IMG/VR virus record: IMGVR_UViG_638276483_000001
Span: 46,866-110,865 of that record
Length of the DNA stretch: 64,000 bases
Source: a virus
Taxonomy: Duplodnaviria; Caudoviricetes
Reading direction: 5' to 3' (one strand)
Shown: piece by piece, positions 325-49,757 of the stretch
How positions within the stretch are numbered: position 1 is the stretch's first letter
Layout: each line of letters opens with the position of its first letter
Position numbers and translations under genes: made by a program
Notes under the pieces: model-generated
The model's input: only the letters and a program-made list of their open reading frames with translations
The model's database searches: none
What the model was told of the DNA's origin: nothing

Positions 325-3300
325 TCATTCGTCGAATGCCTTCCTGATGAGGTCCAGCTCTTCACGGTTGCGTTCTTCCCGTGCTTTCAGGGCTTCGGCT
401 GCGGCGGCGCCCACGTCGTGGGGGACGTCCGCCAAATGGGCGTAGATGTCTGCGCTCATCTGGCAGAACGCCCGATACTCATCCGGGTCTTGGATGGGGC
501 ATTTTTTGAGGGTGTCGATCGAAGCGTTGAGGTTGTCCCACGCGGCGATCCACGCCTCTACACGAGCATCAGTCATTGTTCCTCCGTAGGTGCTCATCGT
601 CAGGACTGTCGTGCCACCTATCGATCAGATCGTCGAGGTACCGATTCCAGGCCGAGGTGGTGACGGGCACGCCCTTACATGAGTGGATCACTTCGAACAC
701 CCATTTGCCGCAGCGCTGACATTCTTTCCGGCCGTCGCCGGGGTCCGTAGTCGGATGACTCACTCCAGCGGCCTCACTTTCGTGCTCTTCACCGCCACCG
801 TCTGATACGGGGATAGGCGGGAGGTAATGGACCCGTAATCCGCCTCCGGGTCCACTTTGATCGTGCAGAACACCCAGCCGCGCTCAACTTTCTCGACGTG
901 GCCCCGGTGTTCTAGGCCTTCGAATTCGACGATGACGTCATCGCCAGGCTTGGGTTTCACGCCTTCTCCAAAAGTCGGGTGAGCTCGGCGCGCACCGATC
1001 GGTAAACATCGTCCAGCGCGTTGATCGCGTCGGCGACTGTTGTGTAGGTGGGCGGGGCCGGAAGTCGGTAGGTCATCTCAATCTGACCTCCGCCAACGAC
1101 GGACCTGCTCCGGGTTTGTCCGCTCACAGTTCTTGCTCCCGCCAGTTAGGGTTGGCCGCCTCTACCGCGGCCGAGAAGTCTGCCAATTCGTCTCGCATCC
1201 AATCCGCGATCTCGCCATTGCGGCTGTAGTGCTTGAAGTGCTTGCCCGGGCGGGTGGCGGCCATCCAGCACGTGTGATCAGAGAACAAGTCCAGGTGGAC
1301 CGAGCGGTCGCCGCCGCGCCAATAGAACGTCAGGTCCCCGTTGTCCGGCGCAATCGAGGCGTACACGGTGTCCGGGGTGAAGAGCTGCTCCACCACCCTG
1401 TAGCCCCACTGGGCCATATGTAGGCCGATGTGCCCGCCGCTCCAGAGGTTGGCGATGTCCAGTTTGGCCCGCTCGGTGGCGGAGCGTGTATCAAGCTTCA
1501 CTCTGGCCGGGCCCATGGGATTCAGGTTCCCCGGGCCTGGCCGTTTGGTCACGGTCGCCTTCAGCGCCGGGTCCGCAAGAGTCCATCGTTCGGTCACGGG
1601 CGGAACACCTCGACGTTCCCCCACGGGCCCTTGTGGTCAGAGAGCTCGTCGGCATCCCCGTTCGAGTACAACGTGAGCCACGTCTCGTCATCGACCTTCA
1701 CGTAGACCGCTGCCAGACTGGACAGGAGGAGCGTGGCACGCACCGTGCCGATCGGGTCTCGTGGCTCTGGCTTCTCGGTGATGTCGTACTTCTCCAGCAG
1801 CTTCTCGGCGATGGCGGCGGACGAGGCCCCCCGCACCCTCTGCTCGTAGAGCAGGCTCACGAGCTCCCGCGTGTTGATGTTGGTCATACCTTCTCCTTGC
1901 GATGCAGGCGGCTAGCAGCCGCGACGTTTAACATGGGCTCCACCGGAGCCCCGCGGCACAGGGACCGCGAACCCACCAGCTCCAGCCCGTTCTTCCGCCA
2001 GCGTTTGACGGTGTCCACGTCGACGCCGAGCATCTCCACGAGCTGGGCGGCCGACTCGCACCACTCGCATGGAACTTCTTCTTCCAGCATCTCCTCGGAG
2101 AGGATGTCGGAAGCGAACTGGGTATCGCTCACCGGGAGCCCTCCTTTGGCGGCTTGACCACTGCATAGCCCTCGGCGCCCAGATCCGCCAAAATCACGTC
2201 GGCCGCGGCGCGGCGCACCTCATCACTCCACCCGGCGAGAAGTCCAAGGCTGCGCAGTGTGCGGGCAATCCTTTCGGACGCCCCGACATCAATGAAGTCT
2301 GGGCGAGGATTGGACCGCAGGATATCCTCGATCCATTCGTCTAACTCACTCATCGCTCACCACGTATCCACGCTTGAAGAAGGCCGTCCGGACAATCTGC
2401 TGGGCGAGATGGATTTTGTGGACGGCCCGGGAATGGCCAACGGCGACATGGAACGCCCCATTCTCGTGGGCCGCGTCCGCCTTGTCCACCGCGTCATTCC
2501 AGAGTTTGTCGAGCTCGGTCATGATCTCTTTGAGGATGTCGTTCATCCGAACCCCACATGTTCGCCAGCGTCAATCGCCCTACCCAGTCCTTCTATGAAG
2601 GTGCGTAGTCGCCCCCTCAGATAGTCATCATCATTCGCCAGCCGCTCGTACTCCGGCTCCAACTCTTCGAGCCTGGCCTTCAACCGGGGGAGATAGCCGC
2701 GTCGCAGCTCCCCGTCGCAATCCGAATGGATTAGCAGGTAGAGAACGTCATCCTGCTTGGGGATTCCGTAGATGTCATCCGGCCGCCGCCAGACGGGGTC
2801 CTTCTTGCGCCATCGACCCTGGTAGTTGTCGAGCGTATAGAGATCCCAGTCAAAATCCAGAACCGGACTGCCATGGCTCCAGTGGTCAGGGTCGCTAGGG
2901 ATGATGTAGGGGAGTCCGGCGGCGCGCCCAACAACCTCACGGAACCGGGCAAACCCGCTATAGGCCCCGTGCCAACAGTCGTGCGTAGTGTCTAGTCCCA
3001 TCTTAATCCTCCCGGTACCAGGGCTTGATTTCGCCGACCCGCAGCCGTGGACCGTAGGGGTGGCTAAATCCCCACAGGCCTCCCGCTAGATTGGGGTTGC
3101 GCTGGTCGATCCGGCGCCACATCGACGCAGGCGCGAACGACAACCCGATGCTGGCCAGCTCCAGTGCGAGCAGTACCCAGAAGGCGATCCACAGGGCGCT
3201 CATTCTCGCCACCTCCATTTGCCGTCCTCGCCCAGTTCCTGTATCGCGGTGTTCCACCAGCGCTCGGGCACCGGCCAGTCGGCGGTGCACTCAGCGAGGC

Positions 3301-14796: not shown

Positions 14797-15174
14797 ATGA
14801 GGACCTGCACAATTCCGGGGTGCGAGAAGAAGCACCACGCTCGCGGCTTCTGCGTCGTGCACTACGGCCGCTGGACCCGCAGCTCCGACGAGCCCCGCGG
14901 CAACTACCGCCGCAGCCACCGGTCGGATTGCAAGCTGGAATGGTGCAACGGGCGGTTCTACGCCAAGGATCTCTGCCGGTTCCATCACCAGCGTCTCCTC
15001 CGCGGCAAGGCCATGGACGACCCGCGCGGCAACGTCGGGATCTTCGATTGGGCGGCGTGCGGGACGCCGGCGCAATACAGGAAGCACTTCCGGCACGGCA
15101 TCCCCTTGTGCGACGCATGCCGGAAAGCTGAGAGTCGACGTCAGAAGGACCGCCGCGAGAAGGCAAAGCGATGA
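14797..15174 (+). CDS. Cys/His-rich zinc-finger protein
   Basis: Repeated C-x4-C...C..H units and CGT..QY.KH...G.PLCDAC. Confidence 0.65.
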   Translation: MRTCTIPGCEKKHHARGFCVVHYGRWTRSSDEPRGNYRRSHRSDCKLEWCNGRFYAKDLCRFHHQRLLRGKAMDDPRGNVGIFDWAACGTPAQYRKHFRHGIPLCDACRKAESRRQKDRREKAKR

Positions 15175-15489
15175 AAGATTCTTCCGAACCTTTACGGGGA
15201 TCTGATCATCCCAATGCTAAAGTTGACCTTGAGCAAATCCTCGGAAACTGGAGGCCAGCGTGTGGATTGCGGGAGGACATGCCAGCGCTTTCGGTGTGTG
15301 GGAATCCCGCCACGCATGTACTCAACTTTCATGGCGGACATTTTGTTCATCTGACTTGCATCCCCTGCTACCTCCTCTACATGGAGGCAATCCGTCAGTG
15401 GATTGAAACATCCCCCAAGGTGGAATGCACCGCCTGCGGAGAAGGCGTAGATGCACTCGTTCATCTCAAGCTAACTCCGCTCTAAGAAA

Positions 15490-15872
15490 CTTCCCCGGCC
15501 AAGAGCCGGCGGGCAAAACTTAAAAGCTTCAACCGGCGGAATGCCAGCTCCCTCCCAAGTAGACGGGGGTGACGATTCCATCAGCCTTTAGGTGCCGTAC
15601 GAAGCGTTATATGTGTGACGGGTTAAGTGCTACAGGGGCCTGAAAAGGCCGCCCGCGGGGACATAGAAACCTCGCCGTTAGCCGCAAGGCGCGTAGACCC
15701 ACCTCGGTGGAGGATTAAGCTTACCCAAATCTTTTTGCAGAGAAATCTGCAGCGCACGGCCGGAATGGTTCGGCACGAATTCGTCAAGGTTCAAATCCTT
15801 GCGTGCGCACCAGTCGCGGGGAGTCGAGCCGGCTTGTTCTAGCCGAGTGTCGGTTCCTCCCCGCGATTTTTT
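15490..15872 (+). ncRNA. Putative structured ncRNA locus A, ending in a mini-tRNA and a terminator
   Basis: No credible ORF; GNRA hairpins at 15637-15650, 15681-15690, 15736-15751; TCGCGGGGAG/CTCCCCGCGA + T6 hairpin at 15814-15872. Confidence 0.55.
15752..15812 (+). ncRNA. 61-nt tRNA-like element lacking an anticodon arm, CCA encoded
   Basis: Acceptor GCGCACG/CGTGCGC-A-CCA; T-arm CAAGG-TTCAAAT-CCTTG; D-like hairpin GCCG-GAATGGTT-CGGC. Confidence 0.7.
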
Positions 15873-16909
15873 GTACCCAAAATCAGGGAGGTTCGCCCAT
15901 GCTCGGACGTTTCACTGAAGATCAGCAAGTTCTGCTCGCCTGCTACTGGGCGCTCTCCGACGCCCACCCGCCTCACAAGGGCGAGCTGCGAAAGATGTTC
16001 CGCAGCAAGGTGGATACCTCAACCGCGGAGCACGCGGTGATCTCCGCCCGCCGCGCCGAGGACTTCCACATCGGCATCGCCGGTGCCCTCACCGAACTCT
16101 CCAAGGCCACTCAGAAATACCCCCGCTACGCCTTCGACCGTTTCCGTCGGGGGACGGGCGTTCCCAACCATCGCAAGGTGCGGGTCCGTGACAACTGACC
16201 AGGCGGCGAAGATCCTTTATCTCGCCTATCACAAAGACCGCTACGCCCCGCATTGGGAATCCGCCCCGGACCAGTCGCGGTGGCGACAGACTGCCGCAGC
16301 ACTCCTCCGGGAGATGAAATGATCTTCGTTGAGATCGAATGCGACAACCCGAGCTGCCCCAACGGCAGTGAGTATGTTGACGTCTACCTCGACGCGTGGC
16401 GCCGGGGCGCGCCCGTAAACACCTACCTCCCCGAGGGATGGCGTGTGGCGAACGCGGTGGAGCGCCCTGATTGCGCGGGGATCGAAGAGTGAACGCGGCC
16501 GAGATAATGCAGCGCCGGATCGACCTCTATGAACACCTGACCGATATCGATCAAGCATTGCGGCTACTGGTCGGCGGGCCCATGACCCCAGGGGCTGAAG
16601 AAACGGCATTCGAACTCCTTGAGGAGAGGGACATGGTGTGCCACCTCATGCGAGAGGTCGGCTACGAACCTTGGGATTCCCCTTTCTCCGAAGATGAAAC
16701 GAAGGTCTTATGAACTACGAATACGAACTGGTGATCGCCAAGAACGCCGCAAGGGAAACTGAGGCGTTGATCCGCAACGCCCTCGAATACCTGGCGGAGG
16801 CCCGCTCCACGGTGATCGATCACCTCTCCGCCCCCAATGACATCTACGCCCGGCTGACCATTGTTCAGGACCTCGGCCTGGTGGAAGACAATCTCCGAAA
16901 GGCTCTGAA

Positions 16910-45382: not shown

Positions 45383-48223
45383 CCAACGAGGAATTGATCG
45401 AGAAGTTTGTCGAGAAGCTCGCCGCGGAGCAGCCTGGATTCAAATACCTGGAACCACTGCCCGCCCCGCCCACGGAGGGCGAAATCCTCTGGGAACGCAT
45501 AGAAGACCTGGAGCGCAAACACGAGGAACTCCTCGAGCGCTTCGAGTCTCACCGCCACGTTATTGGCGACGGGATGGTCAACGGCCGGTACGAGAAATTC
45601 GCTACCGGTGAGCCAATCAATGAAAGCTAGGTAGGAATGCACGATCCCGAATGCAACTGCGGCGGAATCCCGGAGGATGCCGTAGTTCTGCGCGAACTGA
45701 GGATTGTCGAATTCCTCAACCCGGAGGACGGGGAGATCTACAAGATCGACCTGTCCCACGATGGCTCGGATAATGAGCTCCCCCTCGGGGGGATGCTCGA
45801 ATTGGCGGAGTGGGCGAAAAGCATGGCGATATCGCCGCTTATCGCCGATCTGGTCTACCAGTTTATGAATATAGAAGAAGAATAACTACCACCTTCAGGG
45901 GAACGAAGTGCGGTACTCAGAAAACAGGCCCATTTTGCTCAAGGGCATCCACGAGCAAGACCACGACAACCCCGCAACGCCCAGGTGGATTTCTCCGCTG
46001 GCGTCGGGATTTCTGATCGCCAAGGAGCTGGGGGTAACGCCCCCGACTCCGAAGCAGAATCGCCGCGGCCGTAGAGCCGCTGGTGTGCGCCGGATTCGCC
46101 GGCGCCTGCCCGGTATGGCCATTCCGAAGTCCCGACAGCCCTGGAGGGTGAAGTGATCTACACGGATTACATCGACGGAGTGTTCATCGTCCACGACGGG
46201 ACTTCGACGCCGAGTGAAGTCTGGATGAAGGAATACGCCGCAGCGCTCGCCAGCGGGCGCCTAGACCTCGGGGAGTCCGAGTGAATGACAAGGTCCGCCA
46301 TCGTGGCAAGCCCGCCGAGCCCTTCGCCGAGGTCGGTGCCCACGGGCGCATCACCCGCACCAAAGAAGACGGCCGGCTGCGCATCACCCCCAAGGGTCAT
46401 GGACTCCCGGCCATGGCGTACGTCTCCTGGAAAGACGGCGAGTTCTTCACCTGGGAGCGTCTCTCGGATTTGACCTTCACGAAGGGCCGCAAATGAGAAA
46501 GTGCTCTACCTGCGACCAGCCGTTCGAGAACGGCGAGCCAACCGTCCTGGTGAGCGGTGAGGCCATGCACCCGTGGTGCGACCTCACGCCCGGCCGCGGC
46601 GGGACATGCGATACGGACAACTGCCATTGGCGGTGGACTTATCACGCTGGGGCGTGCGTCGTATGAGCGCCTTCTCCAACTCCACCGAATTTGAGATCTG
46701 GTCCATCAACTGGTGTGGCCGGTGCGTGCGCGATGAGCATGCCGACTCCGGGTTCGGTTGCCCGATCCTTGACACGGTCTATCTAGAAAACAGAGTCCCG
46801 CCAGAGTGGAGCGAGGGTACCGATGGCCTCAGAGACCGATACCACTGCTCAGAGTTCGAGCCTTCGTAAGTGGCAACAGCCGCTTTCGCCTGAAGCCATT
46901 GAATGGCTGTCGGTGCAGTTCGCAATCCTGCGCGATCGTTTCCGGCCGACTAAGCCCCGGATTCGTTCCCGCAAAGAGTTCTGGGAGCGGTGATGCGCCG
47001 GGGGCTGGCCCTGGCGCTGCACTGGTTGGCGCTGAGGATCTACCGGGATGAGCACACAGAGCGCATCGAAATAACCGACGAGTACGACATTGTCCGCTGC
47101 CGCGTAGAGGTGGCGGGGGATGAATCCGGCCACGGGGTTGATTCGGAGTATGACCTTCTACCCCCGGGCTGGACGATGCGCCAATTCAAGGATGGGGAGC
47201 GGTATCGGTGAATGAACTCACTCCGGAAATGGTCGCCCAGTACGATCAGCAGCTCGCGGCGTGCAACGAGTGTCTTGATAAGTTCGTCGAGACGTTTCAG
47301 ACCTTGTCGTGGTGCGTGGGGTCGGACCTGGTGACGATGGAGTTCGCCAACGATTTTGTTCGGCGGGTCGAGCTTGCCGAGAACGGCGAGGACACCGAAG
47401 ACGACTTCGGGGTGACTACCGAGTTCCTGGCGAACATGTTGACGGTGGCTATCAAGAGATTGGCGCGGGTATGATCCGGCTTCCTAATGGCGACATGATA
47501 GGCCCGCGCGACAGCGTGATCCGGGAATTGCTCACCGGTGAAGAGGTGCCTGTCGAGGACTGGGTTGTGGACCAGTCTGAGTTTGTGGACACCAACGCGT
47601 GGCGCTACTGCAAGTTCTATGACCTTCCCCCGGAGTTTTGGGCCGACATGCTTCACGATTACGTTTGGGAGCCCGAATGATATCCATCGCCCTGGTGGAT
47701 GGGCGCCCAGTCACCCCCTGTAAAATGGGATGGCTGGTGGATGACACGGTAACCAAGGCTGCCCAGGTGGGGTTAACCTGGACCCCGGAAGACGTGCATC
47801 AGCACCTTCTGATCACGATGTTCGATTACCCTATACCGCCCGAGTTTCAGTCTCGCTATGACCAGATGAACGCAGATTTGAAGCGGGTGGGCGATACGGT
47901 TTGTCATTGTGGCGCTCCGGGCGAGCGATACGCGGGTAAGAGGTACGCGGTGTGCCCGCCGTGCGCCTATAGCGTGCATGAAACCTGCTATTGCAGCGAG
48001 GGCGAGTGAACACGATGCAGTGCGACTTCTGCGACCTTGAAGAGGGCCACGAGGGTACCCACATTCTTTATGCCCCGGCCGAGGAGTTTGACTGGCTCGT
48101 GAAGATGCTTGACGAAGAAGAAGAATGAGCATAATCGAAGACCTCATGCTGCTCGAGGATCTTCGCTAGGCATGTGTCAGTTTTGTGAAGATTGATCGGG
48201 ATGAGAAACCCGGATACGGGCCA

Positions 48224-48289
48224 GCGCACGTAGCGATAGGACAGGGGCTGTCGAGAGACGGCCCGGGGGTTCGATTCCTCACGCGCGCT
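48224..48289 (+). ncRNA. tRNA-like element with a GNRA-capped hairpin in place of the anticodon arm
   Basis: GCGCACG/CGCGCGC acceptor (6 of 7 pairs); GGGG-TTCGATT-CCTC T-arm; GGGCTGTC-GAGA-GACGGCCC. Confidence 0.55.
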
Positions 48290-48401
48290 CGCAATGCTGG
48301 GGGATGCGCCGCGAGGCCCACTCCCAGCATCCCTATAGCTGAATATGGTAAAGTAGTTTTTACGACCAGTCCCCGGTACCTCTGCCGGTCATTCGCTGGT
48401 C

Positions 48402-48537
48402 CAGGGTGTAGCTCAATAGAATAGAGCGCCGTCGCATCCCCGCGTTGAGGGCCGTTAAGCGGTGCGGGGACGGGACCGCGGAAGATGCCGGTAGGTGACA
48501 CCTCGCGCTAAATGCGGGGCAAATCCGGCCACCCGAA
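48402..48537 (+). ncRNA. Expanded tRNA-like element with insertions in the anticodon arm and T-loop
   Basis: CAGGGTG-TA-GCTC-AATAGAATA-GAGC ... AAGAT-GCCGG-T[insert]CAAAT-CCGGC-CACCC. Confidence 0.55.
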
Positions 48538-48695
48538 TTTGCCCCGCATTTGCGGATGTAGGGGAAGCGGCCTCCGGGATTACCCGCCGGAATGGCGGGG
48601 CCTGGGGGTTGCGCCACTCCGGCGGCCCCTGGCCGCCTAGGAACCCAGCCCAAGCTTCGGAGGCCGCTCCCGAGAAGCCTCTGGGCCGGGCTTGT

Positions 48696-48767
48696 GCGCT
48701 TGTGGTCGAATTGGAAAGACTCCTGGCTTCCACCCAGGTTATGCAGGTTCGAGTCCTGTCGAGCGCT
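48696..48767 (+). tRNA. tRNA-Gly(TCC), CCA not encoded
   Basis: Canonical cloverleaf: GCGCTTG/CGAGCGC, CCTGG-CTTCCAC-CCAGG, GCAGG-TTCGAGT-CCTGT, U73. Confidence 0.92.
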
Positions 48768-49662: not shown

Positions 49663-49735
49663 TGGCCCGTAGCTCAATTGGCAGAGCAGCCGGCGGTAAT
49701 TTCGGCGCGTCTCGGTTCGAGTCCGGGCGGGCTAC
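49663..49735 (+). tRNA. Non-canonical tRNA with an 8-nt anticodon loop (CGGTAATT); identity uncertain
   Basis: TGGCCCG/CGGGCTA acceptor, GCTC/GAGC D-arm, GCCGG/TCGGC anticodon stem, CTCGG-TTCGAGT-CCGGG. Confidence 0.75.
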
Positions 49736-49757
49736 CTACTTTTCCCGTGAGGTGTCG

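Follow-up and report, generated by a model that had tools for sequence, protein, structure and literature searches.

The 64,000-nucleotide (nt) stretch of viral DNA analyzed here (hereafter, the window; positions 46,866 to 110,865 of the IMG/VR record IMGVR_UViG_638276483_000001, which comprises 110,865 bases) comes from the genome of a Cluster J (Omegavirus) mycobacteriophage. Two small rightward open reading frames (ORFs) of this genome are separated by a 414-nt gap (15486-15899), and the 3' end of the gap is occupied by a tRNA-like module (15752-15812, + strand) consisting of an acceptor stem, a D-like hairpin, a 10-nt stub, a T arm, the discriminator base A73 and CCA. The initial annotation presented this module as a 61-nt mini-tRNA. 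It is not a stand-alone gene but the 3' module of a larger, conserved, non-coding RNA of about 280-340 nt, located at about 15533-15872, a structured RNA, not annotated before, that occurs in Omegavirus, Gaiavirus and related mycobacteriophages.

The RNA, all on the + strand, starts with domain A (15533..15598), a three-way-junction-like 5' domain delineated by alignments and folds and conserved within Cluster J only. It is followed by domain B (15615..15727), a five-way junction with a closing helix, P1, and four hairpins, as defined by the RNAalifold consensus and a covariance model (R2). A single-stranded linker (15728..15735), U-rich in all Cluster J variants, leads to hairpin H6 (15736..15751), with 5-6 predicted base pairs (bp), which abuts acceptor nucleotide 1 of the tRNA-like module without a spacer. 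The module, in turn, is followed after 3 nt by a 3' hairpin with the hallmarks of an intrinsic terminator (15815..15872). The same gap is present between gp95 and gp96 in the annotated relative Courthouse.

All the features that the initial annotation listed for positions 15752-15812 are borne out by the sequence. The acceptor stem (15752-15758 with 15802-15808) shows 7/7 pairs, and its pair 3:70 is G-C rather than G-U. Directly after the 5' strand of the acceptor comes the D-like hairpin, with GG in the loop (15759-15774), then the stub that takes the place of the anticodon and variable arms (10 nt, 15775-15784), then the T arm (15785-15801; stem 15785-15789 with 15797-15801), with 5/5 pairs and a 7-nt loop, UUCAAAU; the discriminator A is at 15809 and the encoded CCA at 15810-15812. 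Thus, of the features of a canonical tRNA, the 7-bp acceptor, the 5-bp T stem, a T loop of the UUCRANU form, the D-loop GG and the discriminator base are present; the anticodon arm, with its 5-bp stem and 7-nt loop, and the variable region are absent, only 10 nt connecting the D-like hairpin to the T arm. The stub is itself self-complementary, so that 3 bp with a 4-nt loop are possible. The minimum-energy structure of the module matches this cloverleaf-like shape exactly (-26.4 kcal/mol, z -3.13), with none of 200 dinucleotide shuffles as stable, and the same fold is predicted in five relatives (z -3.3 to -4.3).

The pairing of the module is maintained by compensatory changes. The alignment of eight distinct sequences (six Cluster J variants, Gaia and WXIN) was fitted to a covariance model and hence leans towards the structure. 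In this alignment, 98.9% of the cells in the 24 pairs are paired, and seven of the 24 pairs are changed on both sides, compared with 1.7 +/- 1.0 in shuffles (0/500 reach 7) and 0-2 with slid partners. These compensatory changes uphold the original argument that the perfect pairing reflects selection, not decay. These 61 nt form a genuine mimic of the 'top half' of a tRNA, with an acceptor/T-arm stack and a D-loop/T-loop elbow, and without an anticodon arm.

Domain B is the most conserved part of the RNA, its joining strands being nearly invariant. Model R2, which represents this domain, matches all nine loci searched, with a single match in the window. Counted, again, on a model-fitted alignment, 96.8% of the cells in its 28 pairs are paired, and 13 pairs carry changes in both partners; shuffles give 5.7 +/- 1.5 such pairs (0/500 reach 13), and sliding the partners gives 1-4. 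Hairpin loops interchange between the GNRA and UNCG types, as structured RNAs typically do.

Within Cluster J, a 1030-nt query around the gap retrieved 50 phage records, 14 of these at 95% identity or more and the rest near 70%; the 311-nt non-coding stretch alone retrieved the same 50 records, 49 of which cover at least 80% of this stretch. In the distant, Baka-type subgroup, the RNA is 80.6-81.5% identical to that in the window, and the gp96 protein only about 60% identical, and therefore the RNA is better conserved than the coding flanks. The Baka-type subgroup also sheds light on the stub, which in these phages is a 16-nt hairpin of 6 bp with a UCCG tetraloop (UUCG in Bobby). The subgroup of the window shows a 6-nt deletion inside this hairpin, together with the replacement of one C-G stem pair by U-A. 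As judged from the aligned sequences, the 10-nt stub is what remains, in this subgroup only, of a 6-bp UNCG-type hairpin shortened by 6 nt. Single changes in Wanda and HokkenD preserve pairing via G-U, and the changes in Thibault fall in loops. The encoded CCA, listed in the initial annotation, is not a fixed feature: it is present in the window, Thibault, Bobby and HokkenD, and replaced by CCG in Baka, Constella and Wanda; among all the sequences, CCG, CUC, CGA or CUA take its place.

The RNA extends beyond Cluster J. WXIN has the RNA core in common with Cluster J, and Gaia and Nebkiss (Gaiavirus), which were reached via gp96, carry the same RNA between a WhiB gene and a gp96 homologue. Searches with degenerate DNA patterns added two uncultivated viral contigs with the RNA, L019 and L021. 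Domain A cannot be aligned by sequence, on reading, in WXIN, Gaia, L019 or L021. H6, a simple hairpin in Cluster J, is a three-way junction in these four. WXIN, Gaia and L021 have a tRNA-like module at the same place, with a 6-7-bp acceptor, a D-like hairpin with GG in the loop, and T loops of sequence UUCGAUU or UUCAACU followed by A and C. The replacement for the anticodon and variable arms is 9 nt long in WXIN, 8 nt in Gaia and 3 nt in L021, for an overall range of 3-16 nt. The stacked acceptor and T pairs number 12 in Cluster J, WXIN and L021, and 11 in Gaia. Common to the five module-bearing lineages are the T loop UUC-R-A-N-U, the GG of the D loop, A73 and C74. Acceptor pairs 5 and 7 and T-stem pairs 2 and 3 are changed on both sides in WXIN or Gaia. 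The acceptor of L021 differs from that of Cluster J at pairs 2, 4, 5, 6 and 7 and is still paired, with one G-U. Model R1, which represents the module, recognizes L021 weakly (17.4 bits, E 0.14, below one unrelated match in the same locus), and the L021 module was assigned by position and fold.

In the remaining lineage, L019, domain B (94.7 bits with R2), the H6 junction, the 3' hairpin and the gp96 gene are all retained, but the place of the module is taken by a perfect 16-bp hairpin (-39.7 kcal/mol, z -7.8), and model R1 finds no match there at E <= 10. Given this swap, the position seems to require a recognizable helical module and not a tRNA as such; the L019 hairpin may be a site for an RNase III-type, that is, double-strand-specific, nuclease.

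Scans of viral contigs with DNA patterns returned only the known phages, L019 and L021, and two scans of genome contigs with exact patterns gave 0 matches. The sole match of an exact-pattern scan to a metagenome contig, L017, lies inside an unrelated, apparently coding sequence and was dismissed as a chance match. Diverged copies escape all such pattern scans. A BLAST search of the phage collection with the Gaia RNA yielded Gaia, Nebkiss and weak Cluster J matches only; matches of this RNA to enterobacterial phages (34 nt, E 0.4) were likewise discarded as chance.

The 3' hairpin has the form of an intrinsic terminator in the window, where a 9-bp outer stem (arms 15815-15823 and 15857-15865) is followed by six T at 15867-15872 (fold z -5.3); a simple terminator scanner, with a loop limit of 8 nt, missed it. 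The hairpin folds stably across six lineages (z -2.2 to -6.9), and it goes beyond a plain terminator stem. Its inner stem motif, GAGCCGG, is shared by the window, WXIN, Gaia and L021, with a one-base variant in L019; the hairpin of the Baka type is simpler. A clear U run after the hairpin is present only in Cluster J and is absent in WXIN, Gaia, L019 and L021. A natural variant is found in KashFlow, where a 282-bp insertion with small annotated ORFs (1064-1345 of L022, corresponding to about 15867 of the window) separates the 3' hairpin from the T run and gp96, so that the hairpin loses most of its U tract. The match to Hannaconda is in two pieces like that to KashFlow, going by the match pattern only.

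Upstream of the RNA lies a gp95-like ORF (15171..15485, +), a variable neighbor that encodes a Cys-rich protein of 104 amino acids (aa) assigned to PHROG 6825, a family of unknown function; the gene upstream of the RNA encodes an HNH endonuclease in WXIN and WhiB in Gaia. The preceding, gp94-like protein of the window (14797-15174, +) has matches among HNH endonuclease PHROGs and, in its C-terminal third, among PHROGs of WhiB-like regulators as well. A short motif containing CTAGAG was noticed by eye upstream of the RNA in four lineages, at about 1286-1295 in L008 and about 1523-1530 in L018, with further copies on the - strand at about 2742 and about 2618 in L019 and at about 5960 in L021; it could be a promoter or operator element or else a chance occurrence. 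In Courthouse, the locus is located about 3 kb downstream of a divergent pair of genes, for a repressor (gp87) and a helix-turn-helix protein (gp88), and a long run of genes on the same strand follows it.

The downstream neighbor, by contrast with the upstream one, is invariable. The gp96-like ORF (15899..16198, +; 99 aa), with its ribosome-binding site about 25 nt past the hairpin, follows the structured RNA in 6/6 lineages for which DNA is available, including WXIN, Gaia, L019 and L021. Homologues are located at 1961-2242 (-) in L019, 5202-5492 (-) in L021 and 1775-2026 (+) in L020; about 20 further representatives of the family are known as proteins only, without DNA context, and a search for related loci with a subset of six proteins returned nothing. 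A tblastn search with gp96 detected 53 phage records, and among 1.84 billion proteins, 28 representatives of 74-118 aa were found at E <= 1e-3. Members of the family have in common a conserved N-terminal helix and, at the C-terminus, a basic motif of the G-T-G-L-P-x-x-R-K-V-R type. The protein encoded in the window matches PHROG 6612, of unknown function, and is predicted to consist of three helices and an Arg-rich C-terminal tail (AlphaFold predicted local distance difference test score 75.5). It has no significant Pfam match, a Foldseek search of the PDB gave 0 matches, and the Atlas offered no usable lead.

None of the related phage records opened carries an RNA annotation at this locus. 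Instead, hypothetical ORFs are annotated over the RNA: gene 104 of LittleE, genes 96 and 97 of KashFlow and the start of gene 106 of Baka. The terms 'non-coding', 'noncoding' and 'small RNA' have 0 occurrences in the Cluster J paper (PMC3706429). More generally, the RNA family was not found in Rfam 15 or in the open-access papers and preprints searched; a catalogue of 10,006 viral structured-RNA candidates (PMC10690425) might list it.

Rfam has nothing for any part of the RNA; specifically, neither the GOLLD nor the ROOL model gives a match. A cmscan run against Rfam, the check that the initial annotation had proposed, found no match for 15752-15812 at the gathering score, the Rfam tRNA model included. 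The best permissive match is to mascRNA-menRNA (RF01684), with 25.5 bits and E 0.023 in the window, 25.5 bits in LittleE and 20.7 bits in WXIN, all below the gathering score of 42.5. Thus, of the two likenesses suggested originally, that to mascRNA stands, as the nearest formal, sub-threshold match, which is an analogy and not membership. The other, to Y RNA, does not, as the architecture differs and there is no Ro/TROVE gene: the TROVE domain (PF05731) has 0 matches in the 110,865-base phage record, where the controls were positive. Among the Rfam matches at E <= 10, there is none to the Y RNA YrlA, for which Rfam includes a model, and none to tmRNA. The claim that the module is not the end of a tmRNA also holds: pair 3:70 is G-C in all eight aligned sequences and, on reading of the sequence and fold, in L021; both acceptor strands lie within the 61 nt; and there is no ARAGORN tmRNA call. 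ARAGORN reports no tRNA or tmRNA at the module or in the 13 related loci, and an anticodon arm is present in 0/5 module lineages. The case of a private deletion in a locus where relatives carry a full tRNA, raised in the initial annotation, is thus not what the relatives show.

Several readings of parts of the RNA were tried and rejected. A tmRNA-like tag reading frame was dropped because its stop is not conserved in the aligned sequences of Thibault, Bobby or WXIN. A resemblance of the 5' domain to RNase P RNA or to the sarcin-ricin loop is not conserved between the subgroups and gives no Rfam signal. A riboswitch-like antiterminator pairing with the 3' hairpin came into consideration because, in the window, the 5' arm of this hairpin recurs as one strand of a domain B hairpin; the recurrence is not found in Baka or WXIN.

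The only ARAGORN calls in the window are a tRNA-Gly at 48696 and a second tRNA at 49663 (49663-49736, +), which is given a four-base anticodon and no definite amino acid; its counterpart in Courthouse is annotated as tRNA-Tyr. The region around these genes includes additional tRNA-related sequences. A second anticodon-less tRNA-like element is located at 48224-48292 (+). Its acceptor is paired at 6/7 positions, its first seven bases are identical to those of the module at 15752, an 8-bp stem with a GAGA tetraloop is at the place of the anticodon arm, and the T loop, UUCGAUU, sits on an imperfect T stem, with a hairpin thereafter. Model R1 gives this element 19.6 bits. It is confined to the subgroup of the window, with 16 phage records, 14 of these matched over at least 80%. 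In the non-coding gap of about 520 nt before tRNA-Gly, the sequence at 48405-48510 (+) starts like the 5' half of a tRNA, with a typical D arm, and continues with non-tRNA sequence; it is conserved in Courthouse, receives no ARAGORN call and folds no better than shuffles (z -0.3). In an alignment with Courthouse, the same gap contains about 73 extra G+C-rich bases at about 48561-48633.

We favor, at a probability of roughly one half, a reading in which the module serves as a tRNA-like 'punctuation' handle, used by host RNase P and in 3' processing. From the structure, conservation, covariation and genomic context, we infer the following course of events. The RNA would be transcribed rightward in the early region, between the variable upstream gene and the conserved gp96-like gene. 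Host RNase P would cut between H6 and G1 (15751/15752), and the host 3' tRNA-maturation enzymes would trim after A73, with the CCA-adding enzyme acting where CCA is not encoded. Three products would be expected: a structured upstream RNA of about 220-270 nt, protected by its terminal hairpin; a small tRNA-like RNA of about 58-64 nt that takes no part in decoding; and, where transcription reads through, a gp96 mRNA with a stable hairpin at its 5' end.

This 'punctuation' reading draws on the pattern of conservation because the features that are kept (the acceptor/T stack, the elbow, A73 and C74) are used by enzymes that recognize tRNA by its shape, and those that vary (the anticodon region and the acceptor sequence) are the ones on which decoding or a sequence-specific partner would depend. 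In particular, the region of the anticodon is a 16-nt UNCG-type hairpin in one subgroup and 10, 9, 8 or 3 nt long elsewhere. The module is always located between the conserved body of the RNA and the hairpin directly before gp96. The replacement of the module in L019 also speaks for processing because the long hairpin there appears suited to a double-strand nuclease. Finally, published non-tRNA substrates of RNase P provide precedents. In the available excerpts of PMC4919922, bacterial RNase P is described as pairing R73-C74-C75 with its L15 loop and as tolerating extensive truncation of tRNA. The same excerpts describe the formation of the 3' ends of MALAT1 and MEN-beta by RNase P cutting at tRNA-like structures, list the t-elements of plant mitochondria as further non-tRNA substrates and, through a cited title, mention the precursor of the C4 RNA of phages P1 and P7 as a substrate. 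For M. smegmatis, the host species, the excerpts of PMC4201824 report in vivo cleavage of the YrlA RNA by RNase P and the addition of CCA to it.

Several observations weigh against the 'punctuation' reading. In Cluster J, WXIN and Gaia, H6 pairs the would-be 5' leader up to position -1, an arrangement that RNase P does not prefer; alternatively, H6 might be stacked on the acceptor stem and belong permanently to a single uncut RNA. The L019 hairpin fits equally well with a mere stabilizing helix or with an optional, independently acting module. The L021 module is only weakly recognized by the sequence model, and the sample is small, with five tRNA-like lineages and one lineage that lacks the module.

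Two alternatives shift the function away from processing, and we regard both as possible, if rather unlikely. Under one of these, the mini-tRNA, released or tethered, is itself the effector, a decoy or mimic that occupies a host factor reading the acceptor end or elbow, such as an acceptor-end-modifying toxin or defense enzyme, the CCA-adding enzyme, EF-Tu or a synthetase, and the larger RNA is its carrier. Such a role would agree with the strong conservation of the elbow, G1-C72, G3-C70, A73 and C74, with the presence of the second anticodon-less element at 48224-48292, with YrlA being a tRNA mimic in the same host, and with the two tRNAs, the polynucleotide kinase and the RNA ligase that the phage carries, the latter two having been proposed to repair tRNA (PMC3706429, available portion). 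It fits poorly with L019, which lacks the module and keeps all else, with the CCA not being encoded in most lineages, and with the variation at acceptor pairs 2:71 and 4:69 to 7:66, which argues against one specific synthetase or another sequence-reading partner. Under the other alternative, the whole element, comprising domain B, H6, the module and the 3' hairpin, is a cis-acting leader controlling read-through or translation into gp96 and the rightward operon. It might take the form of a put- or nut-like antitermination RNA at the immediate-early/delayed-early boundary, possibly bound by the Arg-rich tail of gp96. Here, the invariant order of the RNA, the hairpin, about 25 nt and the gp96 ribosome-binding site in six lineages, next to a variable upstream gene, is in favor; on reading, the distance between hairpin and binding site is too short to accommodate a promoter. 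The U run in Cluster J, the position about 3 kb downstream of the divergent repressor/helix-turn-helix pair with a long same-strand gene run thereafter, and the basic C-terminal motif kept in the gp96 family point in the same direction. However, no alternative antiterminator pairing is conserved across the lineages, on reading; the U run is absent in most lineages; KashFlow has a 282-bp insertion between the hairpin and the T run and gp96; gp96 shows no detectable similarity to known antiterminators or RNA-binding folds; and the tRNA shape is left without a reason. Two more speculative and still less probable readings are a new class of ornate phage RNA, with gp96 as part of a ribonucleoprotein switch at the early boundary, and a tail that recruits or titrates a host factor reading tRNA ends. 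The ornate RNA may bring together the five-way junction with its nearly invariant joining strands, the junction hairpin, the tRNA mimic and the conserved 3' hairpin with the Arg-rich gp96, and the titrated factor could be, for example, a defense nucleotidyltransferase toxin or the CCA-adding enzyme.

The remaining explanations, which involve decay or a known RNA, appear highly improbable. A decaying tRNA pseudogene that lost its anticodon arm and has no function might be suggested by the 5' part of WXIN, which resembles an ordinary tRNA acceptor and D arm, and by the first four acceptor pairs, which are those of the phage's own tRNA-Gly. Decay is difficult to reconcile with the pairing kept through two-sided changes in 7/24 pairs, with single changes in Wanda and HokkenD that give G-U and not mismatches, with a loop change in Bobby that stays within the UNCG type, with the identity of about 81% for the RNA against about 60% for the flanking protein between subgroups, and with persistence in five lineages and at least two virus genera. 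Some mycobacteriophages encode tmRNA, and a divergent phage tmRNA or Y RNA (YrlA) would be in line with the tRNA-like domain being joined to a larger structured RNA. Ro60 has also been reported in some mycobacteriophages (PMC4201824, excerpts). Either identity, though, is hardly credible given the lack of G3:U70, an acceptor that is closed locally and not by the two ends of the RNA, no ARAGORN tmRNA call, no Rfam tmRNA or YrlA match at E <= 10 and no TROVE gene. Moreover, YrlA has the opposite topology, without a free acceptor end (see also PMC4201824, excerpts).

Cluster J phages are among the best-annotated mycobacteriophages, yet the RNA was missed at this locus in the records opened, and annotators could replace the spurious ORFs there with a non-coding RNA feature. 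If RNase P indeed cuts off the tail, the RNA would be the bacterial-virus counterpart of the MALAT1-mascRNA and t-element strategies, phages would be using tRNA mimicry to shape their own transcripts, and the module would offer studies of mycobacterial RNase P, 3' processing and CCA addition a well-defined 'top-half tRNA' substrate of natural origin. If, on the other hand, the titration reading is true, this would be the first phage-encoded 'anticodon-less tRNA decoy'. The five-way junction, with joining strands that are almost invariant across phages whose neighboring protein is only 38-60% identical, is itself a candidate for a sophisticated function at the RNA level. Processing modules resembling tRNA and tRNA mimics are known kinds of RNA; we found no description of an anticodon-less mimic that forms the tail of a large structured phage RNA.

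The closest analogy is with the long non-coding RNAs MALAT1 and MEN-beta, in which, as here, a cloverleaf-like module with a reduced anticodon arm (mascRNA and menRNA, respectively) is located at the 3' end. There, the cut by RNase P both generates the 3' terminus of the mature long RNA and releases the small tRNA-like RNA (PMC4919922, excerpts). However, those are vertebrate nuclear RNAs, and the sub-threshold score obtained here denotes analogy, not homology. In addition, no triple-helix element was seen in the phage RNA, where the plain hairpin H6 precedes the putative cut site.

A wider frame is the tRNA punctuation model. The t-elements are, similarly to the module, non-decoding tRNA-like structures beside mRNAs and serve as RNase P processing signals (PMC4919922, excerpts). 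Unlike the module, they are organellar, processed by a protein-only RNase P and unrelated in sequence, whereas the phage module follows a large conserved structured RNA. YrlA also mimics the acceptor, D and T arms without an anticodon loop (PMC4201824, excerpts), but its ends form the Ro-binding stem at the place of the anticodon stem, and it is encoded beside Ro60; the ends of the phage module are at the acceptor stem. The module resembles tmRNA in joining an acceptor and a T arm, but no anticodon arm, to a larger structured RNA; it differs in the G-C at 3:70, in the acceptor strands that are contiguous in the module and in that no conserved tag frame was seen in the aligned sequences. Among phage RNAs, the precursor of the C4 antisense RNA of P1 and P7 is a regulatory RNA and, judging by the title cited in PMC4919922, an RNase P substrate, from different phages with different hosts. 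Finally, GOLLD and ROOL are, like the RNA described here, large structured RNAs of phages and prophages with unknown function, often located beside tRNAs (PMC5737381, available portion). They are, however, much larger (581 nt on average for ROOL, according to the same portion), and in the Cluster J RNA, the tRNA-like unit is fused to the structured body and lacks the anticodon arm.

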